Below, piece after piece: positions 29,587 to 64,000 of a stretch of DNA of 64,000 nucleotides. The notes below the pieces were generated by a model. The model saw only the letters and a program-made list of their open reading frames with translations, had not been told where the DNA came from and made no database searches. This DNA is from Oligoflexales bacterium (GTDB taxonomy: Bacteria; Bdellovibrionota_B; Oligoflexia; Oligoflexales; RGVZ01). The stretch is taken from NCBI GenBank assembly GCA_947445775.1, contig CANFEB010000001.1:80484-144483 (forward strand). Direction: 5' to 3'. Numbering within the stretch: position 1 is the first letter of the stretch; each line of letters starts with the position of its first letter. Position numbers and translations under genes: made by a program.

Positions 29587-29597
29587 TGGTCACTCCG

Positions 29598-29951: not shown

Positions 29952-29973
29952 GTCAGTCCTCCATCATTTCGGA

Positions 29974-30417: not shown

Positions 30418-30839
30418 CGGCCTCCACTGATGGCATACCGGAGCATGCCGAGTTTACGATTCAAAGTCTCCACGGATGCCCGGTACAAAATCTGGTTCTC
30501 AGAGAACTGGGCCATTTCCGTGTCGATGTCCACCGTGTTGCCATCGTGCGCTACAGATTCTGTTGGCCTGACGAAGACGTCTGGCCTGATCGTTCCGTCG
30601 GCCTGAGTGAAAGCGTTATGCAAATGTTTGGGGTTGTTGGTGCGAACTGGGATAGCCTCGCTGCCACCAGTCACTTCTTGCAGCTGCTTTTCAAAGTCAT
30701 AGCCAAGGGCGCGAAATCCCGGTGTCTCTGCATTGGCAATGTTGCTGGTGATCACCTGGCTGCGTCGCATCCGGTGACCCAATGCCGCGACTTGCACCTT
30801 GTCATTGAAATCGAACAAGCTATTAATGGCTTGGCTCAA
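30414..30839 (-). CDS. flgB: flagellar basal-body rod protein FlgB
   Basis: SQVITSNIANAETPGF; 141 aa; 4-nt overlaps on both sides. Confidence 0.85.
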   Translation of the reverse strand: MSQAINSLFDFNDKVQVAALGHRMRRSQVITSNIANAETPGFRALGYDFEKQLQEVTGGSEAIPVRTNNPKHLHNAFTQADGTIRPDVFVRPTESVAHDGNTVDIDTEMAQFSENQILYRASVETLNRKLGMLRYAISGGR

Positions 30840-31960: not shown

Positions 31961-31990
31961 CGAATCACTCCGTTCGATATTTTGTGCGGC

Positions 31991-32012
31991 GCGGAACTCA
32001 CGCGGAACTCAC
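31991..32012. repeat. 11-bp tandem direct repeat GCGGAACTCAC x2 in the activator leader
   Basis: Read directly, 31-52 nt upstream of the activator ATG (31960). Confidence 0.8.
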
Positions 32013-32024
32013 ATTGTTTGAAAA

Positions 32025-45437: not shown

Positions 45438-46494
45438 CTAAAACCCACAGTCCTTCAACATATCTTGCCAAGGCATGATTTCGATACCATCGCGGTGTAA
45501 ACGCTCGGTCCCCTGATAGGCGACGATGGCGCGATGGGGTTTTCCATAATAGCGCGCGAAACTTGCGAGCCCCGTCAGATCCGAGTCGCCAATATTTCTT
45601 GTGGCTTTGATCTCTAGGGCGATGGTCTCGGTGGGGCGCTCAATAATTAAATCAACTTCAGCGCCATGCTCGGTTCTATAACTGGAAAGCCTCACGCCAA
45701 TTTCATCGCGCGCAGAGATGCTGTGCAAAATCTGGGTAACGACAAGAGTCTCAAAAAGCGTTCCCTTGCGGTCATCACTCACAATGAAGTTACCCAACAA
45801 ACCATTGAGTACTCCGGTATCAAAAAAGAAATATCTGGGATGCTGAACCAAACGCGTGCGCGTGGATTTTGCGAACGCTTCCAATCGATGAACAATCAAC
45901 GTGTCCTCGAGGATCTCAAAAAACCGACGTGCAGTCTGGTGGTTCACCTGAGCCTGTATCGCAAGTTTTTGAATATCTAAAAATTGGCTGGACGTTACCG
46001 CGGCGAATTTTAGAAATCGCGCAAATCCCTCAATATTTCTTGTAAGCGCCTCTGCCTGAATCTCCTCTTTCAGATAAGTCGCCGCATAGGAAGAAAGCGT
46101 TTTAATTTTATCCCTCTCGCTATCCTCGGTATATATCCCCGGCAGCGAACCAAACGCCATCAACGCATTTTCATTCGCCTGGTAATTGAGTTCAGCGGCT
46201 ACGAGTGGCCCCATTGCGAAGGCATGAATGCGCCCGGGCAACAAATTGGCTTGTCCCCGCCGCAGCTTTCGCGCGCTGGACCTCGTCAATAAACACGATT
46301 TGATCGCGGTTTTTGGGATTACTCCGTTGCTCTAATCGCCTCGGATCCGCCGCATAGTCAAGATACTCTCCCTCGTGGGCAAGATTGATCTTCAGTGCAT
46401 TTGGAAAGATTTGACCCAAAAGAGTGGACTTGCCAGTCTGCCTGGGACCAAAAATTAATGGGCTTTTTTTTGGGCGCTTTACACGTCGTGTTGA
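45438..46494 (-). pseudogene. AAA_14/DUF4143-type ATPase, decayed (5' stop, internal out-of-frame deletion)
   Basis: Walker A LIFGPRQTGKSTLL (46423-46449) lies downstream of an in-frame TAA (46495-46497). FIDEVQR is joined directly to ARKLRRGQANLL at about 46272, with roughly 25 codons missing and a frame change. C-terminus AEVDLIIERPTETIALEIKAT. Confidence 0.75.
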
Positions 46495-46596
46495 TTATCC
46501 CGCGTATTTTCAACGCATAGCAACAATATTGATCCGAGTCAGTCCCTTCAATTCGTCCAGGCTACGAGGTCAACCAAACTTCAGCGGCAAAGAAAA

Positions 46597-47478
46597 TCAA
46601 TCAACGGACTTCACAATCGAGTTTTCAACGTCACGTTCTGTCGACTGTGCCGCCGCCAAGTTTGTGACAAACTCCGTCAACAGACTCATTTGTCGTTCCG
46701 TTACATGCTCAAAACTCATGCCGGCACTTGCACCGGTAATGGACAAACGACGCACCCGTGCAGATAGTCGGAAAATTTCACCCTCTGCAGGCGATAGCAC
46801 ATCGGAAATGGGGATCTGAAGGCGAACCTGGGATTGCAAATCAAAACTCAACGTTGAATCACTAGTTGCAATCATGCCCCCATGCAAACTGATGTCGACC
46901 AAGGTGCCCTTGCGCCAGGCATCACTGCCCAACATCTGAAACGAAATGGGAAGCGCGACCTTGAAGCGGCGACTACGCCGCCGATTTTTATACTCAAGCG
47001 CTTGTTTCACTCGGGCAATGAGATTGATCGGAGTCATTCCCTTCAAATCGACGTAATCGTCATTCTCCTGATGGGCGAGAAGGATTTGGCGGTAGGCAGT
47101 TGTCATTTCCTTAGGTTCGCGGGTCAGAAATAAAACCGGCAGGCCTATTGTTGCCTTTTTTTCTTTCATAAACCGAACTAGCTTTAACAACCGGTCTCTG
47201 GGTGCAAACGAATCATCGAGGATCATAAGCTGGATGTGGCGCGATACTTGTCGGGCTAATTCCTCGGGGGTTTCTGGTCGCACGACGACGAAGGCCTTGC
47301 CCAGTTCTTTAAAATATTTCCCAAGAGCGGACTCAAGTTCACCGGAGAAATTTGCGCCCAATGCCAACACAATAAAGGTCTTTTGTTTTTTCTTCGGGGC
47401 CGCGAGGTAATCCGCAACTAGACCGGCACCAGCCCCGCTCTTTTTTTCCTCTCCTGTTGATTCGACATCGTCCGTCAT
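46597..47478 (-). CDS. receiver-like domain plus PilZ domain protein
   Basis: Start M43 (TGATG overlap with the upstream stop). REC-like LMILDDSF. PilZ RRSRRFKV...LVDISLHGGMI. Confidence 0.65.
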   Translation of the reverse strand: MTDDVESTGEEKKSGAGAGLVADYLAAPKKKQKTFIVLALGANFSGELESALGKYFKELGKAFVVVRPETPEELARQVSRHIQLMILDDSFAPRDRLLKLVRFMKEKKATIGLPVLFLTREPKEMTTAYRQILLAHQENDDYVDLKGMTPINLIARVKQALEYKNRRRSRRFKVALPISFQMLGSDAWRKGTLVDISLHGGMIATSDSTLSFDLQSQVRLQIPISDVLSPAEGEIFRLSARVRRLSITGASAGMSFEHVTERQMSLLTEFVTNLAAAQSTERDVENSIVKSVD

Positions 47479-49106
47479 CAAAGGGCTCCCGAGCCAACGC
47501 GTTTTTGAATGCTCCATCCAGCGACATGCTTGAAAAATGAGTAGGGCTCGATCCGGACCCCACTCAGGTTTTCTTGAAACGCTGCGTGATGGGTCAACGT
47601 CCAAAGGAAAATGTAGGGCGTCTCATCAGCGATCACTGCATGTAGCTTGCGATAAATAGCTCTTTTTTTCTCGAAATCGTTGGTTGCGTCGGCTTCGGTT
47701 AACAGGGCGTCAACACCTTTGTTTTTTAATTGAACAAAATTGTTGCCCCAAGGCCCAGCACTGCTCGAATGAAAGAGGCTCATGATGTTGCTGGCGTCGT
47801 CAAAACTCCATGATGCCAGGGTCATGTCATAATCATGTTCGAACAGGACCTTCTTTTTCCAGGCGACCCAGTCCAGAAATTGCAAATCCAACTTAATACC
47901 AGCCTTGGCAAAGTAAGATTGCAAACCCAAAACAATCTTCTTCAGAGTCTCGCCTTCTCCGGACACCGGCACCACCATCGTCAACTGAAAGGGCACGCCC
48001 TTGGCGTCCTCTAAAATCCCGTCGCCATTTTTGTCGGTAAGTCCTGCCGCTTCGAATAATTGTTTGGCACGCGCCAGATCATATGTGACGGATGGAACAT
48101 CCAGGTTGTACGCCCACGATGTCGGGGGAAATGGTCCGGAAATCAACCGACCCCGCCCCTGAAAAAAAGCCTCCAGCATTTCTTTGCGATTGACCGCAAG
48201 TGATAGAGCCTGACGGACCCTGCGGTCAGCTAGGGCCGGCCGGGAATTGTTCAGGGCCACAAAGCTATAAGACAGTGCGTCGTAGGGGAGCAGCAGCAGG
48301 CGCTTGTCGGCCATGATTTCACCAAGGTCTCTGGGGCTGACATAGGTGACAAGATCCAAGGCACTGAACATCAACGACTGCGCCATGACACTTTGATCGG
48401 CGTAGCTCTTCATTACGATGGTTTCGATTTTGGGAGTGCCACCGAAATAGCCGGGGTTGACCCGCAAGAGAACCTCGCCCTGCTTGTTGGACTTGATGAA
48501 TTGATAGGGACCTGTGCCAATTGGATGCTGCGCAAAGGCGCTGTCTCTGAATAACGTGCCTGCCTTGACAGCTGCTAGGGAGGATGCCGGCAGGATTTTA
48601 AACATCAGCATTCGAAGCGGGTCGACGACCGCCCTGCGCAAAGAAATTTTGACTGTGAACGGATCGATCTCCTCGGCCGAGGCAATGCCAGAAAACCGCT
48701 CGAAATTTGGTATTCCAGAACGGGCCTGGGTCAGAAATTTGACTGTGGCAACGACATCACTAGCTTGGAATGCCGGCCCAACATCTTTTGCAGAGGCTTT
48801 GACCGACGTTGCCGTTGGATGCCAGGTAACGTTGTTGCGCAAATGGAAAATAACTTCCGAGCCAGTTTTAGAAACCTCCCAGCTGATTGCCAGGCCGGCC
48901 ACATAGTCACCGCTGCGGCCGATATCCACCAGCCCATCAAAAATCAAATCCGACATTCGTTGAGCCGTAGCCTCGTGGGCCGTATAGGGGTCATAAGTCT
49001 CAAGACGCCCGGTCTCGCCGTAAACCATGCGATTTTCGGCTGCAAGTAATTGCCCGGAGAAAGCAAACGCGGTTATTGCAATGCTAAGACCAAAAATTAT
49101 GGACAT
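47478..49106 (-). CDS. family-5 (Opp/Dpp-type) solute-binding protein, orphan
   Basis: Signal peptide, then LETYDPY...MSDLIFDGLV...VTWHP. No permease or ATPase genes adjacent. Confidence 0.7.
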   Translation of the reverse strand: MSIIFGLSIAITAFAFSGQLLAAENRMVYGETGRLETYDPYTAHEATAQRMSDLIFDGLVDIGRSGDYVAGLAISWEVSKTGSEVIFHLRNNVTWHPTATSVKASAKDVGPAFQASDVVATVKFLTQARSGIPNFERFSGIASAEEIDPFTVKISLRRAVVDPLRMLMFKILPASSLAAVKAGTLFRDSAFAQHPIGTGPYQFIKSNKQGEVLLRVNPGYFGGTPKIETIVMKSYADQSVMAQSLMFSALDLVTYVSPRDLGEIMADKRLLLLPYDALSYSFVALNNSRPALADRRVRQALSLAVNRKEMLEAFFQGRGRLISGPFPPTSWAYNLDVPSVTYDLARAKQLFEAAGLTDKNGDGILEDAKGVPFQLTMVVPVSGEGETLKKIVLGLQSYFAKAGIKLDLQFLDWVAWKKKVLFEHDYDMTLASWSFDDASNIMSLFHSSSAGPWGNNFVQLKNKGVDALLTEADATNDFEKKRAIYRKLHAVIADETPYIFLWTLTHHAAFQENLSGVRIEPYSFFKHVAGWSIQKRVGSGAL

Positions 49107-49115
49107 GCTCGCTCC

Positions 49116-50543
49116 CTAGTTCTGCAAAAAGACTGGCCGCAACTGCTGCAACGCCCGTCCTTGGAGTTGGACACCTTGATTGGTCAGCGCAACGAAAACC
49201 TTGTCCCAGGCGCCGACCTGGGCGCGAAAACTTAAGACACCAAGCTTCGACATCATGATGTCGCGGTTCATCTTGGTGTTGGTCCTGAAATAGTAGGTCT
49301 TACCCTCGTACATGTCGTAGGCATGAATGGGATTGAACAACGATGGATCGCGCTTCACAAAGATGACTTTTCGCGCATCTGGAGTCCAAGCCGGACCAGT
49401 GTTTAGGTCCACAACGACATCTCTGGCCACCAGATGATTGGCGAGGGCTTCATCTGATAGGGGAAATCCCCGAGCATCGGTCGGCACGACATGAATATTC
49501 CAATGGGTGTTCTCATCAAATGAATCTTCGCTTTTTTGGCGTACAGCACTGTAAAACGCAATAAATCGTCCATCGGATGACACCGTCGGCCGCAGCTCAT
49601 CGGCCTCGCTTTTGGTGATATTGAAGGGCTGGCTCCAGCCTTGGCCGCTGCCACCTCCGCTGGTACTGGCCTTGCGCCGCGTCATGACCACATCATGATT
49701 GCGGGCGTCACCACTGGAAAAAACAATCCTCTTGCCATCCGGGTACCACTCGGGAAACAAGTCAGGCTCGCCGGAATTGCTAACCTGCAGCACTTTTTGT
49801 TCGTCAACTTCCACAACGTAAATTTTTGCAGTCCCCTTCCGTGAACTGACAAATGCAATTTCGTTTCCGGATGGATTCCACGAGGCGTAACCATTTTTTG
49901 CGCGACTCGAAGCCACAGTTTTCTCACCGCCCGCCACGCTGCCGACGTAAATATTAAATTCCCCAACGCCGCCATTCGAAACAAAGGCAAAGCGGTTGCT
50001 GTCACGCGACCATCGCAGCCCGGCATTATACGACAGCATTGAACTGCTATTTCCTGACACGTTGCCAGCAACACCCTCGATGAAGCTGCCCCGATCCGAC
50101 ATTGGCAGGACCATAAGTTCCCTGGCGAAATCCCCCATCAAATCCTTCAACAGGATCCGGCGGTTATCGGCGCCGATGATTTCAAAACCAAGGTAGACCC
50201 CATCTGCAGACCAACTTAAATTGGCTTCATTCAGGGAATCATTTCCGTCCGTCAATTTGCGAACCTCCACCATCTGAACGCCTTGGCGTGCCGCTGGCAA
50301 ATCGGCATAGAGCCGCTCAAAGGTCTTCGCCCCAGGAAAAAAGCGCTTAATGAACGCTGGAAAATAGGCGCCATCTGTCGCCTTGAAATCGACCAGTTTG
50401 TCACGTTGATCCCGCTTGAAATATTTCTCGACCCAAGCACGAGGCGCCCACGCCTGTCCACTGGTGGTACAGCCGGTGGCCGTCGCTATGCTGCTGACGG
50501 TGATCGCCGCGGCTATGGCAATTTTTAAGCGTTGAAGACTCAT
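49116..50543 (-). CDS. TolB-like beta-propeller (PD40 repeat) lipoprotein
   Basis: Lipobox ATGC. PD40-like repeats ASWNPSGNEIAFVSSRKGTAKIYVV and PEWYPDGKRIVFSS. Confidence 0.65.
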   Translation of the reverse strand: MSLQRLKIAIAAAITVSSIATATGCTTSGQAWAPRAWVEKYFKRDQRDKLVDFKATDGAYFPAFIKRFFPGAKTFERLYADLPAARQGVQMVEVRKLTDGNDSLNEANLSWSADGVYLGFEIIGADNRRILLKDLMGDFARELMVLPMSDRGSFIEGVAGNVSGNSSSMLSYNAGLRWSRDSNRFAFVSNGGVGEFNIYVGSVAGGEKTVASSRAKNGYASWNPSGNEIAFVSSRKGTAKIYVVEVDEQKVLQVSNSGEPDLFPEWYPDGKRIVFSSGDARNHDVVMTRRKASTSGGGSGQGWSQPFNITKSEADELRPTVSSDGRFIAFYSAVRQKSEDSFDENTHWNIHVVPTDARGFPLSDEALANHLVARDVVVDLNTGPAWTPDARKVIFVKRDPSLFNPIHAYDMYEGKTYYFRTNTKMNRDIMMSKLGVLSFRAQVGAWDKVFVALTNQGVQLQGRALQQLRPVFLQN

Positions 50544-53506
50544 CGGCTGGAAAGTCCTGCCTGGGTTTGTTTCAGATAGACTCTAGCGTTATCGGCCAGA
50601 ATTTTGCTCTGCTTGTCGAGGTCATCGGCCGGCATCACGTTGTCTAGATACTCACGCCAAGCGCGGTTGGCATTATCTAGGGCAGATTGATCATTGATGA
50701 GGAGCCAGCGCCGGTGAAAACTCAGTGCCCGGAAGTATTCCAAATTTTGCACCGACTGCTTGAAGTCCTTTTTGGGAAGAAACCGGGTATATTTTGCAGC
50801 CCGATCAAGTATGGCTGCCGCCTTGCCAAAGCCTTCGGCGGCAGCCTTTGGATTCGACCGCGACGATTTTTCCGCGATCATATGGATCGCCATGCCCTCA
50901 TTGATATGGGCGCCAATGAAGCGCTTATCGATGAAATCACGCACTTCTGGAACTGCCGTAACGCTGGCAAAAAATTGCTCGGCCTTGGCCGGGTCATTCA
51001 ACTTTCCCAAGGCCAATTCACCGGCAATATGGCGACTGACCAAAAAGTCGGTGTGATTTTCCGGAACCTTTTCCAGGACTGCAATGGCTTCTATAGTTTT
51101 TCCCGCGTCGGCCATTTTTTTGGCATTTGTGATCACGTCGGACTCAAGATGAACTGCGCGGGATCCCGTCAGATCTAGCGTTCCAGCCTCGACCTCAAGA
51201 ACGGTTGCATATTTTTTATAGCCATCTGGTCCAGCGATTTCCAATTTTACAAAGGCCCCGGCCCCATCAAGGCGGGTATCAAGAGGCGTCTTGCCGGATA
51301 GTTTTCCCTCGAGAAATACTGAGGCCCCCGCAGGGACAGAATCAACACGCAGGCGCGTCGCCTCTGCTTCGATTGTCACCTCAATTTGCTTTCCAGTGGC
51401 CGGGGTGGCATCCAGGATTGCTTGATTCCATCCGGCCTTCGTCACGGCAACCTTTCCCGTCGCCCCGAGCAACGATCGCGGAAGGTACACAACCCCATTT
51501 GAATTGCTCGTGCCGATCCAGACATCGTTGAAATAGACATTGGCTTGGGGAACTGGACGGGGATCATCACTAGCCCTGCTGCGCACGAGGATCGAAGACG
51601 TTCCATCCTTTGATGACAAGGTCTTCAATGCTCTTGGCGGCTTGGATGCTTCCTTCGCCTCTGGCTTGGCGGTGGTTGCCTCAGGCTCTGCGGCCACGGA
51701 ATGGGTAAGGGTAGACTGGGCTGGCATGCCCCGCATGACCACAAGGTCTCCGCGGCTGATTGTTTTTCTTGAAGGCTCCTCATCGACAACCAAAGCCAAC
51801 TCGGCACCCGCATCGCTGGATGCGGCGCCGCCCGCCGAGGTCATCTCTGACTCGGGAATCCTGGCACTGGCAATGTTTGCGATATTTTGTTTCCGTGCCC
51901 GGACATTCATTTGCGCGCCGAAGACATCAAACCGGTCGCCAGGTTTCACAATCGCAGCCAGTTGCCCGGGCAACAGGACGCGAATCTGCCCCTGTTCAGC
52001 TGCGGTGACCACGCCCTGAAAGGGCAGCGACCGGACGAGGCGTTCAACAACACTGTCGATTTGGGTTTGGATTTGAGCCAGCTTCTCGGGTTTGGAGGCA
52101 TCGCCGCTTATTTCTTCTTTGGCCGCAGCCATCACGATGCCTTTTGCGTCGACTGCCACCAGTTCAAGGAGGGCCCCCCCCGCGTGCCGCGAGAATGACC
52201 GGCGGATCCGCAAGTCTGGATGTTTATGGCCTGGATTTACTTTGGTCATAATTTTCCGCGAGAACACTTTCCGGTCCAAGGCAGCGTCGGTCAATTTCAA
52301 GAGAGCGACGGATGTTGCCTGGTCCAGTGTCGATGATGTTTGGCGTGAGTCTTCAACGACGGCTACAGGCAGCCTTGGATGTCCGCTCACGAAATGGCGT
52401 GCGAGATGAATGTCGCCGTCGGTATTGAATTCCGATTCACAGGACTCGGGCAGAAAGCCTTTTGGTGGTGCCATGTCTACTTTCAAGGTAGAGCCAATGC
52501 CGCGCTTGCCGGCCGTCGACCCTTTGAACGTAAACCTAAATCGTCCAGCCTTGTCGGTTGTCCCTGCTGGCTTGCCATCAATGGAGATCAACACGCCTTG
52601 AAGCGGGACGGTCGAGGTTACTCCGCGCCCATAGGCGAGGATTTGCATCGTCTGACCTTTTTGCATTTGCAAACGCACCAGCTTGTTGTTCGCATCAATA
52701 AGAAGGTCTTGGGTTTCTGGAACGTAGCCTGATTTTGCCAGGCGCAGTTCCCATTCAGTTCCCGGTTCCATTCTGACCGCACAGCGACCTCTGAGATTCG
52801 TTGTGCACAGCAGTTTTTCTGGAATTTCGATTTGGCCTTCACGATCCCCTTCGCCGCCCATTCTTGGAACTGCGCCAATGCGCACGCCAACTAGCCCGGC
52901 ATTGCCAGAGAAAACGTGAAAGGTGACCAGAACATTTTGTGGAGGGCTTGGTTTTTCTTCTTTGGGGGTCTCTTGCTTGGCGGGCTCAGATTTCTCTGGC
53001 GCTAATTTTTCTGGCTCCGTTTTTTCAGGAGCTATGACCGGAGCCGTAACCATTGCCAAAACTTCAGTGGCCGGACTTTCGGTCGGTGCCGGCCTTGCCT
53101 GTGCTGCCTGCGCTGCTGCCGTCAGGCTTGGTGGGTTGGCCTCTACTGTTTTTGGTTTGGGCACGAAATACATCACCGCCTTCACAACAACGGGACGAGT
53201 CGACGATTTGCTGAGGTCCAAGGTTTCGACGTGTGGGGCAAAGTAATAACTGTCGCTGATCTTGGTGATTTCAATTGCAACTTGCGAGCCATCGACTATC
53301 GCAGGCTTTACCTCAAGAATTCCTTTGGCATCGGTTGATCCGAGGATTCGCCCACCAACCCTGACCTGGGCCTCGTGCACCGGGTCTCCCTGATTGGTGC
53401 GAACTTCAACCTTGATTTGCGTGATGGTTTCGCGCTGGCAAGAGGCTGAAGCCAACGCAAGTGTCATGGCCAAAGGCAAACAGCTAAACCAGGAATGTCT
53501 CGGCAT
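50540..53506 (-). CDS. large multidomain lipoprotein (carboxypeptidase-regulatory-like/PEGA beta-sandwiches, LpoB/FlgO-like module, TPR-like C-terminus)
   Basis: ATG 53506 lies 6 nt after GGAG. Lipobox LASASC. PEGA-like RLRVDSVPAGASVFLEGKLSGKTPL. Helical-repeat C-terminus. Confidence 0.55.
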   Translation of the reverse strand: MPRHSWFSCLPLAMTLALASASCQRETITQIKVEVRTNQGDPVHEAQVRVGGRILGSTDAKGILEVKPAIVDGSQVAIEITKISDSYYFAPHVETLDLSKSSTRPVVVKAVMYFVPKPKTVEANPPSLTAAAQAAQARPAPTESPATEVLAMVTAPVIAPEKTEPEKLAPEKSEPAKQETPKEEKPSPPQNVLVTFHVFSGNAGLVGVRIGAVPRMGGEGDREGQIEIPEKLLCTTNLRGRCAVRMEPGTEWELRLAKSGYVPETQDLLIDANNKLVRLQMQKGQTMQILAYGRGVTSTVPLQGVLISIDGKPAGTTDKAGRFRFTFKGSTAGKRGIGSTLKVDMAPPKGFLPESCESEFNTDGDIHLARHFVSGHPRLPVAVVEDSRQTSSTLDQATSVALLKLTDAALDRKVFSRKIMTKVNPGHKHPDLRIRRSFSRHAGGALLELVAVDAKGIVMAAAKEEISGDASKPEKLAQIQTQIDSVVERLVRSLPFQGVVTAAEQGQIRVLLPGQLAAIVKPGDRFDVFGAQMNVRARKQNIANIASARIPESEMTSAGGAASSDAGAELALVVDEEPSRKTISRGDLVVMRGMPAQSTLTHSVAAEPEATTAKPEAKEASKPPRALKTLSSKDGTSSILVRSRASDDPRPVPQANVYFNDVWIGTSNSNGVVYLPRSLLGATGKVAVTKAGWNQAILDATPATGKQIEVTIEAEATRLRVDSVPAGASVFLEGKLSGKTPLDTRLDGAGAFVKLEIAGPDGYKKYATVLEVEAGTLDLTGSRAVHLESDVITNAKKMADAGKTIEAIAVLEKVPENHTDFLVSRHIAGELALGKLNDPAKAEQFFASVTAVPEVRDFIDKRFIGAHINEGMAIHMIAEKSSRSNPKAAAEGFGKAAAILDRAAKYTRFLPKKDFKQSVQNLEYFRALSFHRRWLLINDQSALDNANRAWREYLDNVMPADDLDKQSKILADNARVYLKQTQAGLSSR

Positions 53507-53530
53507 CGCGATCTCCAAATGTTTCACGCA

Positions 53531-54034
53531 TCAAAATTGCGGAAGAGTCAAAACCGCTCCGCCTTCACCGCGGCTGGCAGCAGGATCATTGTTTATGTCC
53601 AATGTTTTTGTCCGCGCTTGTCCGATTGGCTTGAGCACGAGATTGATGCGCTGTGATTTTGTCAGATCGATTTTCTGGGATACAGGTTCATAACCTGGAA
53701 CCAGAGCTTCGATTAGGTATTTGCCTTTGGGCAGGTCATGGGTGCTGACAAACGAGCCATCTTCTTCGGGAACAAGAATCATGGATGCCGTCTCATCCGG
53801 ATTCATTGCGTCACCATTGGTCGGGGCAGCACTCGCATCAAGGCGGGTGACGTTCACCCGGGCGTCACGTAGCGCATCTGGCCCTAAATCTGGCCCTTCA
53901 AGGCGCCCAGAAACGGTGGTGGCGCAGCCTGACAGCATCGCGACAGTAAGGGCGCATGAAAATAAAAATGATCGTGCTGGAAAACATGAGGTTCGGAAAC
54001 ATGAGGTTCGGAAACATGAGGAGTGGCAGGCCAT
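53531..54034 (-). CDS. carboxypeptidase-regulatory-like domain lipoprotein
   Basis: Start M20 of the ORF. Lipobox MLSGC. Single beta-sandwich (KGKYLIEALVPGYEP). Confidence 0.5.
   Translation of the reverse strand: MACHSSCFRTSCFRTSCFPARSFLFSCALTVAMLSGCATTVSGRLEGPDLGPDALRDARVNVTRLDASAAPTNGDAMNPDETASMILVPEEDGSFVSTHDLPKGKYLIEALVPGYEPVSQKIDLTKSQRINLVLKPIGQARTKTLDINNDPAASRGEGGAVLTLPQF
53982..54021. repeat. 15-bp tandem repeat AAACATGAGGTTCGG x ~2.7
   Basis: Encodes SCFRT-SCFRT-SCF inside the signal-peptide n-region. Confidence 0.85.
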
Positions 54035-54167
54035 GGCACTAATCTCCACAAAGGCAACCGGGTCTAATTGATTTTTCCCGCGCTGGGACATTCAATTCTA
54101 CACTTTTATCCCTGTGTTTTTAAGCCTTTGGACCAAATAGATTGAAATTTGCGGGTCGCCCCGGAAT

Positions 54168-55151
54168 TCACCCTTCCTCTTCCGAGGCTTTCGAGGCTTT
54201 CGAGGCTTCCGAGGCTTCGGGAGCGGACGGTACCACTGCGGGCTTAATGATTGCTGTGGGCGCGGCAATGGGCGTGGTGACGGGCGTGGTGACGGGCTTG
54301 GTTATGACAGGTTTTTTCGCTGACAGCGCTTGGCTGCTGGCAAGGTGACTAAAGCGCATGTTCACTGGAATCGTGTAGGAGGAACGGTAATTGTCCCCGT
54401 TTCCCGCAAAGGCAATGTCCACCGTCAGCACCCGCCCCTCAAAATGGGGGGGCAAGGCAAACACAAAACTACGGCGGGAATAACGTCGGATTCCAAATCT
54501 CTGCCCTTGATCCGTATTCAAGGGCTCGCCAGTTGTCGATAGGGTCATGGTTTTGGGGATCGTGACATTCAAGCGTTCCCCACCTAGCTTCTCCAATCCT
54601 GCGACGGCCCAGATGTAACCTTCGGCCTTCAATGTAGCCTCCCGGTTGCGCAGATCAAAAAACAGTTCAAAACCACCGTCGCGGGGAACAATCGATGGAT
54701 TTGATAATGAAACCGGCGACTTATGGTCCTCGCGGACGATGACTTTAGCCTTTTCCGGGGTGTCGGTGATGACTCCCGTGATGCCCCCAATTCCAACTTC
54801 GGCTCCAGTTGGCTTGGCGGCTGGCTTGGCGGCTTGGCCAGAATACCTGCGTTCATTAAGCTCGGGATAGGCTTGCTCAAAAACTCCGTCATGCAGGGTC
54901 TGGTATTCGAAAATGACCGACCTTGAGGTGCTCAATTCGGCTCGCAAATCGCTTTGCTTGGCCTGCATTCTCAGTAACAATGCGCCAGCAAAAAAGGCCC
55001 AAATAACCACAACCGCAGAGGCCATCATTACAATAGAAGCCGTACGCAAACTGACCCTGATGGTTTTCGTCTTGGCGGCGTCGACGAAATAGATCAGGTT
55101 CACGTGGCGTTGCGTGCTAAAAAAAGATTTTAGGTTTCGACGGGTCGCCAT
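54168..55151 (-). CDS. single-pass membrane-anchored periplasmic protein, unknown function
   Basis: N-terminal TM IVMMASAVVVIWAFFAGALLL, a coiled segment, and a repeat-rich Pro/Thr/Ala tail. Confidence 0.5.
   Translation of the reverse strand: MATRRNLKSFFSTQRHVNLIYFVDAAKTKTIRVSLRTASIVMMASAVVVIWAFFAGALLLRMQAKQSDLRAELSTSRSVIFEYQTLHDGVFEQAYPELNERRYSGQAAKPAAKPTGAEVGIGGITGVITDTPEKAKVIVREDHKSPVSLSNPSIVPRDGGFELFFDLRNREATLKAEGYIWAVAGLEKLGGERLNVTIPKTMTLSTTGEPLNTDQGQRFGIRRYSRRSFVFALPPHFEGRVLTVDIAFAGNGDNYRSSYTIPVNMRFSHLASSQALSAKKPVITKPVTTPVTTPIAAPTAIIKPAVVPSAPEASEASKASKASEEEG
54183..54218. repeat. 9-bp tandem repeat CGAGGCTT(T/C) x4
   Basis: Encodes the EAS-EAS-KAS-KAS tail. Further 12-bp duplications occur at about 54271-54294 and 54811-54834. 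Confidence 0.85.
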
Positions 55152-55183
55152 ATTTCTACCGGTTGCAAGTTGATTTTAAATAA

Positions 55184-55212
55184 ATTTTAATCAAATCAGA
55201 AACTTTTATCAA
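55184..55212 (-). promoter_or_regulatory. sigma70-like promoter for the envelope operon
   Basis: Minus strand reads TTGATA-N17-TAAAAT. The -10 element ends about 33 nt upstream of the ATG at 55151. Confidence 0.4.
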
Positions 55213-55234
55213 CTCTAGGCCATTTAAATATATT

Positions 55235-56401
55235 TTGAATAGATTAAGCTCAACAATATCACCCCTGCAAATTGCCATCATCCGCTCATCCAGTATCGGT
55301 GACGTGGTGCTTGCCACGGCTGCCGTCGCCTATGCACGTGCGTGGGGCCGCCGTCGCAATCAGACCCTTACAGTGCATTGGATTGGGCGTGATCCAGCCC
55401 TGAGCCTGATCCGCGCATGCTGTCCTGATGTTGTCTGCCATACGATTGACTCCGTTTTGGATCAGGGATCTGGCGCACTTCCTCCGCGCATTGACATTTG
55501 TGTGGACCTGCAAAGCAACCTGCGCTCGCGCCGCCTAGCTTGGCGTCTGGCGCGGCGTCACGGCGCAGTTGTCACCAGGCCATCCAAACGTTATCTGGCC
55601 CGTTCGCTTTTGGTCCTTGCCGCCAGATTGTTGGGACGAAGCCGCTTGAGTCTGGCGGTGCACGAGGGCCTCACCCAAAAGCAATCGGGCGCACCCCAAT
55701 ACCGCCTTGCTGCCCAGGCGATGGCCCGGGCTTTGCAGAAATTAGATGGCCCATCGGAAACCAAATTAGTGGCCGACGCCCGCCCTGAACTCGTTCCACC
55801 TGCGCCAGATCCACGCCTCAATGACGCCACCACAAAGATCTGGTTGGCCGTGGCGCCAGGCGCGTCGCATCCGACAAAAAAAGCGCCGGTCACAATTTTT
55901 GAAGAGATTCTGATTTTATTGGCCGAAAAAAATCCGGTCTATAGCCCCTATGTAAACTCCACAGCCCTGACTTCTACATCCACGACACCCATAGCCATCG
56001 TCCTGCTAGGTGACAGTCGCGAGCATGCCGACTGTCTAGACCTCGAACGGCGCTTGACCGCCCTACCTTGGCCGGGCCCTGTGCTCAACCTGGCCGGGAA
56101 CACGACCTTGCCGGAAACGGTGGCCATTCTTGCGGGGTGCCGAGCCATTCTGAGCAATGACTCCTCTCTGGCTCACATTGCCGAGGCCCTGGGAAAACCC
56201 GCCTTCACGCTCTTTGGTCCGACGGACGAAGCCTTTGGATTTGGGCCGCACCTGCCGACCAGCCGCGCTTGTTCCGTTGCCCTTGGCTGCCGCCCTTGTT
56301 CAAAACATGGCAAAGCACCGTGCCGATTTGACGACCAAGCCTGCTTTCGCTTGATCGACACCCGAAGCACCGGGCTGGCTTTGAAAAAGGTTTTGTCATG
56401 A
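55235..56401 (+). CDS. glycosyltransferase family 9 (LPS heptosyltransferase-like)
   Basis: IAIIRSSSIGDVVL and LAGNTTLPETVAILAGCRAILSNDSSLAHIAEALGKP. TTG start. Confidence 0.7.
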   Translation: MNRLSSTISPLQIAIIRSSSIGDVVLATAAVAYARAWGRRRNQTLTVHWIGRDPALSLIRACCPDVVCHTIDSVLDQGSGALPPRIDICVDLQSNLRSRRLAWRLARRHGAVVTRPSKRYLARSLLVLAARLLGRSRLSLAVHEGLTQKQSGAPQYRLAAQAMARALQKLDGPSETKLVADARPELVPPAPDPRLNDATTKIWLAVAPGASHPTKKAPVTIFEEILILLAEKNPVYSPYVNSTALTSTSTTPIAIVLLGDSREHADCLDLERRLTALPWPGPVLNLAGNTTLPETVAILAGCRAILSNDSSLAHIAEALGKPAFTLFGPTDEAFGFGPHLPTSRACSVALGCRPCSKHGKAPCRFDDQACFRLIDTRSTGLALKKVLS

Positions 56402-59416: not shown

Positions 59417-60282
59417 CTACCCATAGCGTTGTTTGGTCGGCGACCAGTCCGACATAGATTCTTTCGGTCCAACCACTTCACTCGCATGCTTGCGCGCCTG
59501 TGCCATGAAACCGGTGCCGAGTTCCTGTTCGGCAGCAGCTTGATTGTGGCGACGACACCGCAAAGTCAAATTTTCCTCGCTATGTTTACCGCCGCGACAC
59601 CACATTTTAATGTGGTCTAATTCTAGCATCGAACGCTCGGGGCAGCGGCTGCCGCCGGAATGCCTCCACGTGCATTGACCGCGGTCGCGTAGCCATACTG
59701 TGTGACGAATCGCCGCTGGAATTGCTGGACGGGTTGCTGGTTTTTTGTATGGACTCTGACCGCCATTCCCTGGAGAAGCGGGCTCGGAGACTACTTCTGC
59801 GTCGGTCTCTGTCTCTACTTCGGCCATGGCCGTCTTCGCCGGAGAAGGAGAAGGAGAAGGAGAAGGAGAATTTTCGAAGCGCGCCATTGCCCTTTCCGCC
59901 TTCCTAAGTGGGTCACGTTTATCAAGCAAATCTTCGAGAGCCTTAACCAAAATTTCGGGCAGCGACGGCATGCGACCGCCACCCCTCATGTTAGCCAGGA
60001 CCTAGCGGGCTCGGTCCAACAATAGAAGTGCCACCTCTCTTTTTGATTTGTGCTTGATACCATCAAGAAGGAACTCAGAATTTGCCTGAGTGATTTTCGG
60101 CGCAATTAGAGCCAAGTGAGACACTTGAGTCTCGACAGATTCCAGCAGCTTTCGCGCCGTTCAAGTTCACCGATGAGCGACACGGATTGGCGTGGCACAC
60201 ATTTTTTAGAAAAACTTCAAACATGCATCGAGGAACGTACTAATGGCGAAGCCTGACGTTCAAAAATCGTGTCAAGCGACAT
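59417..60282 (-). pseudogene. HNH endonuclease gene (DUF222-like N-region) with an in-frame TAG, upstream frameshift(s) and a probable internal deletion
   Basis: ORF 59417-59989 carries LELDHIKMWCRGGKHSEENLTLRCRRHN. The same frame upstream reads TARKLLESVETQVSHLALIAPKITQANSEFLLDGIKHKSKREVALLLLDRAR-TAG(60002-60004)-VLANMRGGG. Further 5' pieces lie in other frames, up to the ATG at 60282. Confidence 0.65.
59841..59870. repeat. hexanucleotide repeat (GGAGAA)5
   Basis: Encodes (SP)5 in the HNH ORF. Confidence 0.9.
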
Positions 60283-60337
60283 CTCTTGGATAGGAAGAGC
60301 TTAGGGGGTACGGGACGAAGTCGCTGGTGAATTACAG

Positions 60338-60354
60338 TTGGCTCATCGCAACAG
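60338..60354. repeat. 17-bp direct repeat, right copy
   Basis: Spans the last three codons and the stop (60343-60345) of the ATPase gene. Confidence 0.9.
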
Positions 60355-61563
60355 CCCAAAAAGATGCAGTGGAATTCGTCGCCCAGAACTTGCTTCGATG
60401 CCGTCGACAGCCACCACGCGCTTTAGGTCACCCCGCACCGGGTTTGCCGCAAATTGCCGTTCGGTCTTGCCGGAGCCACCAACTTCGACAGCGATCTGGT
60501 CGTCAACGATAAAGTCGATATTACCTAGAGACTTCACCGAATGGTGGGGACGAAGGCTGGTACAAAAGAAGGTCTCGCGAACTGTGCCTATAGATGGTTC
60601 AACTCGATGGGGTGCTGTGATGGCGGCCAGCAAATTTGTATTTTCCAGATAAACTTTTTCTGGTTTGCGGGCAGATTTGATCCCAGTTCCAGCAGCGGCA
60701 ATTGTTTGTAACAAACGGCCATGTTCCAGACAGTCGAGGAAATGATAGGTCGAGGCTTTTGCAATCCCCAAATTTCTGCTCAATGCTTCGATATTCAAAT
60801 GGAATGGTACGGTGGAGGAAACGATCCAAAGTATCTTTTTGAGTGTGTTGACCTTTGCCGCGGAGATCGCGAATTGACTCGTGAGATCTTCGGAAACAAC
60901 TTTGTCTATGATGTTTTGCAAACGCTGGTGATAACCCTCGAGGCCTTGCATAAAAAACGGATAATGGCCGTACTTCAGGTAGTTCCTGAACGCGTTGAGT
61001 AGATTTCCTTTGGCCGCCAGGTCGCGCGCGATGGTCGAGTGATGGGCGATCAAATCATCTAGCGTAATAACGGCTATGTCGCCTTGGCCTGTGAGGTGCA
61101 AATATTCTCGAAATGATAATCCAGGCAAATCGTACCAGAGTACGCGTCGTGACAAATCGGCATTCCCTTTTGTCAGTGCAGACGAAGAGCTGCCGCTGAT
61201 CCAAATCGATTTTTTTGGGTATGTGTCAATTAGGCTTTTAATCTCTGCGCCCCAGTCGGTGGCACGGTGGGCCTCATCAATGATAAGGCCCTCGCCTCCA
61301 CGCTTAAAGTATTCCCGACCGATATTGTAGACCCCAAGGGCTGACACTTCGACATGATCGGCGGAAATATAGAGGCAGCGCTCGTGCGAGCCAAAAACTT
61401 CCCAGTATTTTTGCAGCAACAGGGTTGTTTTGCCGACCCCCCGGCCGCCTGTGAGGCCAATAACGCGAGCATTCCAGTCGATGTCTAGGACGTTCACTCG
61501 CGAATAGGACTTCGGAACCTCTGCGGTGACCAGATCGTGGATCTCTATGATGTTATCGAGCAT
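60343..61563 (-). CDS. AAA+ ATPase with C-terminal nuclease-like domain (AAA_14/DUF4143-type, divergent subfamily), intact
   Basis: 406 aa. Walker A GGRGVGKTTLL, Walker B LIIDEAHR, C-terminal IDFIVDDQIAVEVGGSGK. Confidence 0.75.
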   Translation of the reverse strand: MLDNIIEIHDLVTAEVPKSYSRVNVLDIDWNARVIGLTGGRGVGKTTLLLQKYWEVFGSHERCLYISADHVEVSALGVYNIGREYFKRGGEGLIIDEAHRATDWGAEIKSLIDTYPKKSIWISGSSSSALTKGNADLSRRVLWYDLPGLSFREYLHLTGQGDIAVITLDDLIAHHSTIARDLAAKGNLLNAFRNYLKYGHYPFFMQGLEGYHQRLQNIIDKVVSEDLTSQFAISAAKVNTLKKILWIVSSTVPFHLNIEALSRNLGIAKASTYHFLDCLEHGRLLQTIAAAGTGIKSARKPEKVYLENTNLLAAITAPHRVEPSIGTVRETFFCTSLRPHHSVKSLGNIDFIVDDQIAVEVGGSGKTERQFAANPVRGDLKRVVAVDGIEASSGRRIPLHLFGLLR

Positions 61564-61671: not shown

Positions 61672-62568
61672 TCACTTGGTCCGGCACGACACGCGGCTGG
61701 AGACCTCATTTGGCGACAGCCCGGCCACACAGACGCGCATATTCAAATTGAATCTGGCCTGGCATTTGCCGTTGCCATCAGCGGAAAGTTTTACGTTGGC
61801 CACATTTCCAGGATTAGTGTCGACCTCGCAGGCGGCGGGTGTTGACTCGGCCGCATCACACGACGGTTGGATGGGCGGACAATCACCGGCGTAACGGTCC
61901 TGGCCCTGGCAAGAAATATCCTGCAGCAACTCAGGATTCAAATTACGGGAACACGCTTCCCGGGCCAACTCAGTTCGCGCAACACAACTATTTCCGCCCC
62001 AGGCGACTAAGGGTCTCTCGGACGGGGTGGCACTTCCCGCATACCTTTGCGCGGTGCAGCGCGACGGATCAAACAAGGTGATGCACATACCAGGAACCAC
62101 CGGACACTTTTGTCCACTCGCATCCGGCGCGCACTTGATGGCGTCTAGAGCCTTGACGTCCCAGCCCCGATTGCAGGCCTCGGACAACACCGCTTTGCGG
62201 GCCTGACACTCATTCAGCGAAAATGCATAAGGACGATGCCCCGGCGTCAAGATAGTTCCTGAAAATTCACGCAACTCACAAAATGTTGCCACGCCGCCCG
62301 CCGGGCAGACCTTGTCCAATTCCTTGCAAATATCGGGCTTCATCAGCGCTGCACCGCCTGAAGACGCACCCTCGCCAGCTCCGCCTTTCATTCCGGGATC
62401 GACCGGACCAATTGATTCTTGAATGGGGGAACCATTGGCATCACCGCCCAGCCCACGAGATGACCTGACGGTTTGCTTGCCCAAGCAGGCTGAAACCATA
62501 GCCAAGGGCAAGGCCAGAGCGAGGCATGCGGTGGCACAGCGCAGAAAAATTTTAGTTGGCCGCATCAT
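61672..62568 (-). CDS. Cys-rich lipoprotein with three ~65-75-aa Cys-patterned modules
   Basis: Start MMRPTKIFL... with lipobox MVSAC. Recurrent pattern C-x6-7-CP...C(Q/V)AR-x6-7-(A/V)C...(K/S)C. The start overlaps the flgD 3' end by about 14-17 nt. Confidence 0.6.
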   Translation of the reverse strand: MMRPTKIFLRCATACLALALPLAMVSACLGKQTVRSSRGLGGDANGSPIQESIGPVDPGMKGGAGEGASSGGAALMKPDICKELDKVCPAGGVATFCELREFSGTILTPGHRPYAFSLNECQARKAVLSEACNRGWDVKALDAIKCAPDASGQKCPVVPGMCITLFDPSRCTAQRYAGSATPSERPLVAWGGNSCVARTELAREACSRNLNPELLQDISCQGQDRYAGDCPPIQPSCDAAESTPAACEVDTNPGNVANVKLSADGNGKCQARFNLNMRVCVAGLSPNEVSSRVSCRTK

Positions 62569-63592
62569 GGTTCTCCGTGGCGTCAGATTCAGCTTCTTCA
62601 GTTGTCGCAAAAACCACCGGGATATCAAGGCCAACTTGGCCATCAACGTTGTCATTGGCTTCGGAGGCCGATACTTCCATGTCAGCCGCGCCAGCCGCGC
62701 CAGCCGCAGCAACCTTAACCTCGGTCTTAACTTTTTCTTCCGCCATCCGCACCGCCACCACGTCCTTGGCAGAAATTTTGCCGGCCGCCGTCATAAAGGC
62801 ACCTGCGGGATCTTTCAAATCAACGCCGGTGACTTTGATACGCGTCTGCACCGGAACCGGAACGGCTTGCCCCTCATCAGCAGTGGCCGTGATGTTAAAC
62901 GTGTAGGCCCCGTCTTTAAGTCCCTCGCCGTTGCTCCCCAGGCCACTCCATTGCAAATCCTGCTCGCCTTCACGCAATTGACCGAGGTCTTCCGTGGCCA
63001 CGATCTCGCCATTTTCATCTCGGACTTCCAGGGAAGCCCCGGCAATTGGCCGGTCGATATTAAAGCTGACCTGACCGGGGCTGCCCTTGGAAATCAGCGC
63101 CCGCCCGCCCTCTATCGTCACATCACGCCCGACGTAGTCCAGCATGCCGAAATTGCGGCCATTGCTCTGGCCCTTCAGCATTTCTGTCAGCGTCTTGTTG
63201 ACGTTGAGCATTTGCTCGAGGCCGTTAAACTGCGCCAACTGGGCGGCCATCTGGGCGCTGTCGTCAGGTTTCAGCGGATCTTGATTTTGCAATTGGGCAA
63301 TAAACAGTTTTAGAAAATCGTCCTTATCCAACTGGTTCTTTGGACCCCGCTGTGGGTTATTGCGTTCATTGAGGAGCTTATAAAAATCCTCGTCGGTCTT
63401 TGCCCCAGACAAATCGCCTTCCTTGCTGGTTGCACGGTCTCTGGCGGCGTCGATGTTTGAACTCATGAGAATATTTTTGAAGGAGGCGTCTCCTTCACCC
63501 GAAACAACCTTTGCTGGACCCTTGGAATCCGCGGGCCCCGAGGCGGCCTTGCCCGTGTACGGACTGATTTTGTCTTGTAAGGTAGCCTGCAT
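62552..63592 (-). CDS. flgD: flagellar hook assembly/capping protein FlgD
   Basis: ATG 63592 after GGAGAGG. DDFLKLFIAQLQNQDPLKP and a FlgD Ig-like C-terminal region. Confidence 0.85.
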   Translation of the reverse strand: MQATLQDKISPYTGKAASGPADSKGPAKVVSGEGDASFKNILMSSNIDAARDRATSKEGDLSGAKTDEDFYKLLNERNNPQRGPKNQLDKDDFLKLFIAQLQNQDPLKPDDSAQMAAQLAQFNGLEQMLNVNKTLTEMLKGQSNGRNFGMLDYVGRDVTIEGGRALISKGSPGQVSFNIDRPIAGASLEVRDENGEIVATEDLGQLREGEQDLQWSGLGSNGEGLKDGAYTFNITATADEGQAVPVPVQTRIKVTGVDLKDPAGAFMTAAGKISAKDVVAVRMAEEKVKTEVKVAAAGAAGAADMEVSASEANDNVDGQVGLDIPVVFATTEEAESDATENHDAAN

Positions 63593-63674
63593 GGTGTCCC
63601 CTCTCCGTCGCCTATTTAGATTCAATAATCAAATTCAATAAATTCCGAAATTCAAAAAAACTTGACCAGCCAAT

Positions 63675-64000
63675 TCAAGCGAGGACTTTAATCCGCCCAG
63701 AGCCGCCGACCGTACGGTCGCTGAGATCCACAATTCGAAATGACCGCAACGCCTGGCGGCCCACCTGCTCATTCAACGCCTCAATGGACGGCCCACGGCC
63801 CAGGCTTTGCTTTCCAGACTGAGGGCTTCCCTCGCGCCTCTCGTCAAAGCCGCCCGACCAGCCCTGATTGGCCGGGCCACTGTTGGGTCCGGACCAAGAT
63901 CTGGAATCAAATTCACGAAGCTGCAAATTTTGTTCGCCGAGCGATGCCTTTAACTGCGGTAACTCGCGGGTAATCATTTCGCGTAGCTCTTCGGAGCCAG
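63675..64000 (-). CDS. fliK: flagellar hook-length control protein FliK, C-terminal part (5' end outside the window)
   Basis: The frame is open to 64000: ...GSEELREMITRELPQLKASLGEQNLQLREFD..., which is Flg_hook-like. The position immediately upstream of flgD is canonical. Confidence 0.5.
   Translation of the reverse strand, partial: GSEELREMITRELPQLKASLGEQNLQLREFDSRSWSGPNSGPANQGWSGGFDERREGSPQSGKQSLGRGPSIEALNEQVGRQALRSFRIVDLSDRTVGGSGRIKVLA

Follow-up and report, generated by a model that had tools for sequence, protein, structure and literature searches.

A conserved six-gene operon of Oligoflexales that combines outer-membrane-type lipoproteins, a DppA-like binding protein and a predicted c-di-GMP receptor

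The 64,000-nucleotide stretch of Oligoflexales DNA analysed here (contig CANFEB010000001.1, positions 80,484 to 144,483; hereafter the window) carries on its minus strand six consecutive genes, which we call P1 to P6 and whose products combine three lipoproteins and a solute-binding protein (SBP) with a receptor predicted to bind cyclic diguanosine monophosphate (c-di-GMP). A first-pass annotation, made from the sequence and its open reading frames (ORFs), had described P1 as a single-pass anchored periplasmic protein, P2 as a small carboxypeptidase-regulatory-like lipoprotein, P3 as a large lipoprotein of PEGA and beta-sandwich modules with a helical-repeat C-terminus, P4 as a TolB-like PD40 propeller lipoprotein, P5 as an Opp/Dpp-type SBP and P6 as a cytoplasmic pseudo-receiver joined to PilZ; these descriptions largely held on the evidence given below. 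The layout was exactly as proposed. P1 and P2 are separated by 133 nucleotides (nt) when P2 is taken to start at 54034, the start that best serves a lipoprotein signal peptide; P2 and P3 are 24 nt apart, counting from the ATG at 53506, P3 and P4 overlap by 4 nt, P4 and P5 are separated by 9 nt, and P5 and P6 overlap by 1 nt. The promoter candidate named at the same time is present in the 83-nt divergent intergenic region shared by P1 and the heptosyltransferase gene. It agrees with the consensus at 10 of 12 positions and is the top promoter-like match in 46200-55400, a region in which consensus matches are not enriched overall (10 versus 6.1 +/- 2.3 in shuffled sequences). A search for a terminator 3' of P6 gave none that was convincing.

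Table 1. Positions of the operon genes, the domains of P3, and related and neighbouring features. Coordinates are those of the window unless a locus number (L) is given; P3 domain positions use the residue numbering of the ORF.
Feature	Position	Strand	Description	Basis
P1	54168-55151	minus	ORF of 327 aa, bitopic inner-membrane protein	
P2	53531-54034 (longest ORF from 54091)	minus	small lipoprotein, likely start M20 at 54034	
P3	50540-53506 (longest ORF from 53527)	minus	lipoprotein of 988 aa from ATG at 53506	
P4	49116-50543	minus	PD40 propeller lipoprotein	
P5	47478-49106	minus	SBP_bac_5 binding protein	
P6	46597-47478	minus	293 aa from MTDDV, pseudo-receiver and PilZ	
Promoter candidate, sigma-70-like	55184-55212	minus	TTGATA-N17-TAAAAT	consensus match alone
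FlgT-like three-domain module in P3	51722-52660 (residues 290-602)	minus		fragment model and Foldseek
P3 lipidation site	residue 30		invariant lipidated Cys	alignment
P3 domain	residues 31-123		beta-sandwich	AlphaFold2 model
P3 linker	residues 127-195		disordered, Pro/Ala/Glu/Lys, about 70 residues	AlphaFold2 model
P3 domain	residues 197-290		beta-sandwich	AlphaFold2 model
P3 domain	residues 292-381		beta-sandwich, first domain of FlgT-like module	AlphaFold2 model
P3 domain	residues 388-500		TolB-N-like alpha/beta domain of FlgT-like module	AlphaFold2 model
P3 domain	residues 504-598		small beta-barrel of FlgT-like module	AlphaFold2 model
P3 linker	residues 603-634		second disordered segment	AlphaFold2 model
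P3 domain	residues 636-710		beta-sandwich	AlphaFold2 model
P3 domain	residues 713-790		PEGA domain	Pfam (E 1e-8) and model
P3 domain	residues 798-995		TPR-like helical repeats	AlphaFold2 model
Sister operon example, among L025-L111	L026 9421-21696		nine-gene order	
Extra gene in the P1/P2 interval	L001 8885-9571; L005 1992-2630; L024 8937-9542		missing from the window and closer relatives	weak SH3_3 match
MgtE_N-like protein	23862-24800		312 aa, flagellar cluster 23862-34334	
FliI	25290-26663		flagellar cluster	
FliH-domain ORF	26660-27973		437 aa, unusually long, FliH domain at C-terminus only	
FliF	27970-29586		flagellar cluster	
Sigma-54 activator	30836-31960		flagellar cluster	
TPR protein	32025-34334		769 aa, flagellar cluster	

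The six genes are one conserved operon of Oligoflexales (Bdellovibrionota). Scanning one genome per species yielded 19 related loci, all from metagenome-assembled genomes; where these had a specific label, it was Oligoflexales, Pseudobacteriovorax or Bdellovibrionota. In every locus with enough sequence, genes for RNase G, KdtA and a heptosyltransferase on the opposite strand are followed by P1-P2-P3-P4-P5-P6, and the synteny of the six genes in all complete loci bears out the co-conservation on which the first-pass annotation had staked its reading. P5 is the most conserved gene (50-81% identity to the window), followed by P4 (47-78%) and P6 (34-67%); P3 ranges from 24 to 62%, and P1 and P2 are lowest, with values for P1 to P3 falling to 24-30%. 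The 4-nt overlap of P3 and P4 and the overlapping P5/P6 junctions recur in the relatives, and these junctions of the translational-coupling type, together with the conserved gene set, support the earlier claim of a single operon. Homologues of Opp/Dpp permeases and ATPases, and of the TPR (tetratricopeptide repeat) protein of about 490 aa described below, were absent from the 64-kb window and from the +/-10 kb flanks of the Oligoflexales loci. In a deeper Oligoflexales clade, P1 and P2 are separated by an additional gene of 200-230 aa, whose product gives a weak SH3_3 match.

An alignment of 16 P1 orthologues revealed a conserved cytoplasmic N-terminus (LNxIYFVD..KTKT), a single transmembrane (TM) helix at about residues 37-59 with an invariant W51, a conserved periplasmic segment (IFEYQT..DGVFE.AYP), a low-complexity linker of Ala, Pro, Lys and Glu and, at the C-terminus, a beta-rich domain of about 120 aa. 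No consistent Pfam family and no match to PDB sequences, also with the profile, were found for this protein. A derivation of P1 from the membrane anchor of an M23 peptidase was dropped because Pfam searches with the 16 orthologues returned only scattered noise, one DUF5930 match (E 0.037) among it. P2 has the features of an outer-membrane-type lipoprotein (lipobox LSGC-A) with a CarboxypepD_reg/PEGA-like beta-sandwich. The Pfam matches of the window protein to PEGA and CarboxypepD_reg are below threshold, its orthologues score better, and BLAST connects P2 with a 149-aa CarboxypepD_reg lipoprotein of locus L029 (E 1e-6).

P3 was modelled with AlphaFold2 from 12 sequences (mean pLDDT 77), which resolved the chain of domains and disordered linkers listed in Table 1. 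Its profile matched no PDB sequence. When the full model was searched against the PDB with Foldseek, the top matches were a chain of the Vibrio LPHT ring determined by cryo-EM and the crystal structure of FlgT, both of which fall on residues 290-602. Modelled alone (pLDDT 83, pTM 0.77), this part again matched the LPHT-ring chain (8z5n_0, E 2.1e-8) and FlgT (3w1e, E 4.2e-8), in both cases with probability 1.0 and over 319 alignment columns of targets of 352-356 residues. The next matches were a beta-galactosidase (E 4.2e-4, probability 0.18) and a TolB chain (E 4.7e-4, probability 0.99), with F1-ATPase chains lower down the same list. The 2013 paper on the FlgT crystal structure reportedly likened FlgT-M to the N-terminal domain of TolB and FlgT-C to the N-terminal barrel of F1-ATPase. 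As modelled, residues 290-602 are a complete FlgT-like module, with the same three folds in the same N-M-C order; the N, M and C domains of FlgT itself comprise about 86, 167 and 86 residues (bioRxiv 10.64898/2025.12.02.691832). The TM-scores are low (0.22-0.26, with root-mean-square deviations of 14-23 Å), and the inter-domain geometry of the P3 module therefore differs from that of FlgT. At gathering score the window P3 matched none of the Pfam families FlgT_N, FlgT_M or FlgT_C, and two members of the P3 family gave weak FlgT_C matches below the cut-off (E 0.008 and 0.002).

The first-pass annotation had likened the middle of P3 to the LpoB, FlgO and CsgG lipoprotein domains and the parts of the operon to components of the Vibrio flagellar disk. 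The first proposal stands as a fold neighbourhood, the Foldseek matches being FlgT-like. Membership of the LpoB, CsgG or FlgO families was rejected, as none of 12 P3 orthologues gave a match at E <= 1. The second proposal holds for one module, residues 290-602 of P3, by its Foldseek match to FlgT. The larger idea of the same annotation, a trans-envelope machine with flagellar or gliding parallels, stays hypothetical.

P4 contains four PD40 stretches (Pfam PD40, E 6e-24) behind a lipobox (ATGC-T), and its best structural family is the TolB propeller (E 5e-12, or 2e-20 with the family profile), the match covering the propeller blades only. P4 has no TolB_N domain, which the genuine TolB of locus L027 does have, and it scores 84.8 bits with the TolB equivalog model TIGR02800, whose cut-off is 343.

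P5 is a soluble periplasmic protein with a cleavable, non-lipoprotein signal peptide. It matches Pfam SBP_bac_5 over residues 68-449 (E 1.2e-70) and aligns with DppA structures from end to end (residues 7-522, E 1e-48). Against the equivalog models for DppA, OppA, NikA, GsiB and SapA it reached at best 174.8 bits, the cut-offs being 393-1098; for the DppA/OppA equivalog the comparison is 175 against 1005. Its WSFDD aligns with WTGD408 of DppA, and the Asp that binds the alpha-amino group of the ligand is invariant: 21 of 21 sequences of P5 and of the related sister-operon proteins introduced below share the motif W-[SV]-F-D-D, and across the two clades 114 of 542 alignment columns do not vary. 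By its sequence, P5 is predicted to be a ligand-competent binding protein of the DppA/OppA type, orthologous to the SBP of a full importer.

The PilZ domain of P6 is unambiguous. It spans residues 165-271 (window 46666-46986) at 45.4 bits against a cut-off of 22.5 (E 1e-11), and the residues R167 and R171 of its RxxxR motif and D195, S197 and G200 of its DxSxxG motif are invariant in 12 orthologues. Binding of c-di-GMP by P6 is predicted from these motifs. The N-terminal half carries the conserved motif VADYLAAPRKKRK, and its receiver-like part (about residues 35-160) gives a weak match, E 6e-5 with a PhoB model, and no match to Pfam Response_reg. In the same 12 orthologues the receiver keeps Asp88, Asp89 and Thr119; the acidic pair of beta1 is absent, the sequence there reading G-A-N, and the Lys position of beta5 is variable. 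Since both the acidic pair and a conserved Lys are missing, this half looks like a pseudo-receiver. The P6 family consists of 48 cluster representatives, all of 286-307 aa and 33-96% identical, and is therefore lineage-restricted.

Word-indexed homologue searches with P3 and P6 returned close orthologues only, so that the family falsely seemed tiny. For P3 this was corrected by an exhaustive profile search, which reached distant members: 202 cluster representatives matched the P3 module, 136 of them below E 1e-10, and among them is a subfamily of 850-930 aa that has the architecture of P3. These proteins led to a second type of locus, here called the sister operon, of which a metagenome scan detected at least 376 examples in soil, sediment and groundwater; 80 of them were fetched. 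Its nine genes encode, in order, a 149-aa CarboxypepD_reg lipoprotein, a P3-like lipoprotein, a PD40 protein, the TPR protein of about 490 aa, an SBP_bac_5 protein, two BPD_transp_1 permeases and two ABC_tran/oligo_HPY ATPases. Counting only contigs with room for the gene in question, the binding protein is present in 35 of 35 sister loci, the first permease in 27 of 27 and all five transporter genes in 17 of 17. The sister binding proteins share 42-45% identity with P5 (E about 1e-155, compared with 1e-48 for DppA), the sister PD40 proteins 30-32% with P4, and the sister large lipoproteins about 25% with P3. In locus L027 (2402-8136) the sister operon comes immediately downstream of a canonical tolQ-tolR-tolA-tolB-pal-cpoB cluster.

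The window operon is thus a derivative of a widespread importer-linked module, in which the importer and the TPR gene have been lost or relocated and P1 and P6 gained; P1 is absent from the sister loci and is found only in the Oligoflexales form. The statement of the first-pass annotation that the binding protein has no cognate permease or ATPase is right for the window and the Oligoflexales loci and does not extend to the sister homologues, which sit in full importers. Since the closest relatives of P5 are the SBPs of complete Opp/Dpp importers, the parts of the operon are not a free-standing invention. The order P2-P3-P4-SBP has been kept in two clades with different flanking genes, at 25-45% identity and with overlapping codons, which makes a functional link between these products likely.

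The connection with c-di-GMP, proposed in the first-pass annotation for the window operon, is strengthened by the sister operons. The one Pfam family that recurs in same-strand ORFs just upstream of them is GGDEF (17 of about 55 loci), accompanied by Response_reg (17) and GAF (10-13), with any other family found at most twice. These cyclases have the architecture REC-(GAF)-GGDEF and end 300-550 nt before the first lipoprotein gene. Four sister loci also have an upstream PilZ protein, of the type RHH-PilZ in L026 and L031 and REC-PilZ in L030 and L055. None of these shows homology to P6, and the c-di-GMP links are therefore independent acquisitions. Genes of c-di-GMP signalling have been attached to the module at least three times, in different forms. 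A further second-messenger receptor is encoded elsewhere in the window, at 5615-7795 on the plus strand, by a gene for a 726-aa protein with two C-terminal cyclic-nucleotide-binding domains.

The reading that we favour, with a probability of about 40%, is that the operon encodes a periplasmic scaffold, tethered to the outer membrane, which cooperates with a binding protein of the peptide type and is linked to c-di-GMP, and that this arrangement was rewired in the Oligoflexales. P2, P3 and P4 would be lipid-anchored in the outer membrane and hang into the periplasm on long disordered linkers; their lipoboxes with a residue other than Asp at position +2 and the long disordered linkers of P3 fit such tethering. 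Together the three would form a scaffold of interaction domains, namely beta-sandwiches, the FlgT/TolB-N-like module, PEGA, TPR and the propeller, that positions, loads or gates P5. P5, in turn, would bind a ligand carrying a free amino group; a peptide is the likeliest candidate, with the cell wall or prey as possible sources. A P5-type protein's ligand would, in most lineages, then be imported. In the Oligoflexales, where the importer genes have gone from the operon and P1 and P6 have been added, the bitopic P1 may couple the state of the periplasmic complex to the c-di-GMP receptor P6, or, conversely, P6 and P1 may set the activity of that complex; P5 may also still feed an importer encoded elsewhere. 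There is a precedent for signalling by this family of binding proteins, since E. coli DppA is a chemoreceptor ligand through Tap. That the products form a complex, what P5 binds, which way the signal runs and what it controls are inferred from the composition and conservation of the operon.

Several points weigh against this reading. The physical complex follows from co-conservation only, and neither the window nor any of the Oligoflexales flanks contains an Opp/Dpp permease or ATPase. The equivalent of DppA Arg355 is missing in P5, so that the ligand class of P5 is uncertain, and the SBP_bac_5 family also includes binders of nickel, heme, glutathione, opines and sugars. The sole strong structural match of P3 is a flagellar ring protein, and flagellar genes lie nearby in Oligoflexales; the favoured reading puts the first down to common descent of a domain module and the second to synteny. 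Finally, the sister operons lack homologues of P1 and P6 and so offer no cross-check on their role.

A broader version of the scaffold idea, which we hold more tentatively than the favoured reading itself, is that the P2-P3-P4-SBP core may be an unrecognised envelope apparatus of many soil and freshwater lineages: a periplasmic scaffold, anchored in the outer membrane, centred on the FlgT-like module and switched by c-di-GMP, that physically couples events at the outer membrane or cell wall to the SBP. It is similarly tentative that this apparatus would operate with an Opp/Dpp importer and a dedicated cyclase in most lineages and with P1 and P6 in the Oligoflexales, the nearby flagellar motor being a possible output.

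The main alternative, which we consider unlikely, is a tether or cell-wall regulator resembling Tol-Pal, Lpo or PorE systems. In it the lipoproteins and the TolB-like propeller would connect the outer membrane with peptidoglycan or the enzymes that synthesise it, P5 would bind murein stem peptides in the manner of MppA, either to recycle them or to sense the status of the wall, and c-di-GMP would tune the activity. This overlaps with the scaffold reading if the ligand is a cell-wall peptide, and it is compatible with much of the same evidence. In its favour, the P4 propeller is most like TolB and the middle domain of the P3 module matches a TolB chain; it is also in line with the position of the L027 sister operon directly 3' of the Tol-Pal genes, the additional gene of the deeper clade that separates P1 from P2 and weakly matches SH3_3, and the lipopolysaccharide-core genes and dapF in the neighbourhood. 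However, Pfam detected no OmpA_C, LysM or other recognised peptidoglycan-binding domain in the window operon and no LpoB match, P4 lacks a detectable TolB_N and remains far below the TolB equivalog cut-off, and adjacency to Tol-Pal occurs in 1 of 87 sister loci. A standard Opp/Dpp importer in the sister operons, moreover, does not by itself point to murein peptides.

A flagellar scaffold is improbable. On this account the operon would encode an analogue of the H- or T-ring in which P3, with its FlgT-like module and MotX-like repeat, and P4 surround the LP rings, and P6 acts as a CheY-like c-di-GMP brake. The structural evidence is suggestive: for P3 residues 290-602, FlgT leads all other structural matches by four orders of magnitude, with the three domains in order, and two family members show the weak Pfam FlgT_C matches. 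The organism is flagellated, with FliF, FliH and FliI encoded at 25290-29586. Positions 61675-64000 hold FliK, FlgD and a conserved gene of 292 aa, with two inserted genes between these and RNase G; in L006-L008 the FliK-FlgD block adjoins RNase G directly, the contig end of L003 shows FlgD and the 292-aa gene, L014 has FlgD and a 292-aa homologue, and L024 has the 292-aa homologue only. PilZ proteins are, furthermore, classic flagellar brakes, as in YcgR. Against this, the homologous sister operons contain an ABC (ATP-binding cassette) importer instead; no flagellar gene lies within 10 kb in 7 of 7 sister loci with called genes, and there is none among the 25 families listed for the upstream neighbours of about 54 sister loci. 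In the window an opposite-strand housekeeping block separates the flagellar genes from the operon, and in L011 and L018, two of the deeper Oligoflexales loci, the ORFs at the position of the flagellar block gave no Pfam match. FlgO, FlgP, MotX, MotY and YcgR_N were unmatched among the window ORFs scanned, and the TM-scores and deviations of the Foldseek superpositions indicate a different domain arrangement. We know of no role for a DppA-like binding protein in a flagellar motor. Taken together, these results weaken a flagellar-ring role.

We give equally little credence to the possibility that there is no joint machine, P5 being an ordinary nutrient SBP that is co-transcribed with unrelated lipoproteins and serves an importer encoded elsewhere: orphan SBP_bac_5 genes are common, and the surrounding genes as a whole (RNase G, KdtA, heptosyltransferase, DapF) keep their synteny throughout the order, so that some of the co-conservation may be inherited gene order rather than function, yet the order P2-P3-P4-SBP is shared by two clades with entirely different flanking genes and has been kept at 25-45% identity with overlapping stop and start codons.

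If the scaffold reading is correct, this would be the first SBP of the peptide-importer type to have outer-membrane lipoproteins, TPR proteins and a TolB-like propeller dedicated to it, the whole set being under c-di-GMP control through a cyclase or a PilZ receptor. The module would represent a common and unstudied piece of envelope biology in bacteria of soil, sediment and freshwater, some of them predatory. Its Oligoflexales form is a natural experiment, in which the importer was lost and P1 and a PilZ protein were gained, and could show how a system is rewired from uptake to signalling. The P3 module also implies that the FlgT fold is not confined to flagellar rings of the Vibrio type, which bears on how periplasmic flagellar scaffolds were recruited.

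Elsewhere in the window, a gene of about 290 aa (61675-62496, minus strand; 3604-4482 in L006) directly follows flgD, at the position expected for the hook gene. It has no Pfam match and is kept in L003 and L006-L008 and, weakly, in L014 and L024. Three AAA_14/DUF4143 ATPase genes and an HNH endonuclease gene occupy positions 45438-46289, 59417-61563 and 9260-10303, the copy at 45438-46289 comprising the DUF4143 part only. Two such insertions break the conserved gene order, one in the interval between P6 and the epimerase gene and the other between RNase G and the flgD block, and they have the appearance of mobile insertions of recent date. Positions 19738-19834 on the plus strand, where a 195-aa ORF (19814-20401) starts, contain a purine riboswitch aptamer (Rfam RF00167, 53.7 bits, the gathering score being 37). 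Three long minus-strand ORFs, at 20453-22942, 17691-18854 and 2377-3882 (829, 387 and 501 aa), had no Pfam match at E <= 1e-4.

Our literature search found no description of a system with this composition, in agreement with the first-pass annotation, and the nine-gene sister operon also appears to be undescribed. Several known systems nevertheless share parts with the window operon. P1 resembles TolA and TonB in layout, with a TM helix, a low-complexity linker and a globular end. It differs from them in the helix itself, where the conserved His of TolA and TonB (SHLS motif) is missing. P6 shares a canonical PilZ domain (RxxxR, DxSxxG) joined to a CheY-like fold with the PilZ and receiver proteins exemplified by YcgR-type brakes, Myxococcus PixA and the Caulobacter Cle proteins. 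Unlike these receptors, it has no YcgR_N and a degenerate receiver, belongs to a family confined to the lineage of the operon, and is encoded together with periplasmic proteins.

The P3 module and FlgT of the Vibrio H-ring (3w1e, 8z5n) have in common a beta-sandwich, a TolB-N-like alpha/beta domain and a small beta-barrel, and the likeness may extend to function, FlgT being a periplasmic protein-protein scaffold. The P3 module, however, is embedded in a 988-aa lipoprotein with five further domains, and in other lineages the P3 family is tied to an ABC importer. With TolB and PorE the operon shares a PD40 propeller of the six-bladed type, that of P4 being closest to TolB, as well as TPR repeats, carboxypeptidase-regulatory-like sandwiches and lipid anchors in the outer membrane; as PorE illustrates, a peptidoglycan tether can be built from TPR, propeller and carboxypeptidase-regulatory domains (PMC12204202). 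PorE fuses its domains, whereas here they are spread over three proteins, and unlike a tether of the PorE type none of the six products has a Pfam match to the OmpA family. The contrast with Tol-Pal is similar: the operon contains no TolB_N, no Pal/OmpA_C domain and no TolQRA motor genes, and the tolQ-tolR-tolA-pal context is absent from the window and the Oligoflexales loci.

Every part of the operon thus comes from a known domain family, and P5 from a known transporter class; it is their combination that appears undescribed. A further comparison is with the Opp/Dpp importers (DppA-DppBCDF, OppA-OppBCDF and MppA), whose binding proteins are of the same class as P5 and whose ligand-anchoring Asp it keeps. 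Opp/Dpp loci known so far lack partners of the lipoprotein, propeller, TPR or PilZ kind, and in this respect the operons described here, which surround a binding protein of this class with such partners, are unlike them.

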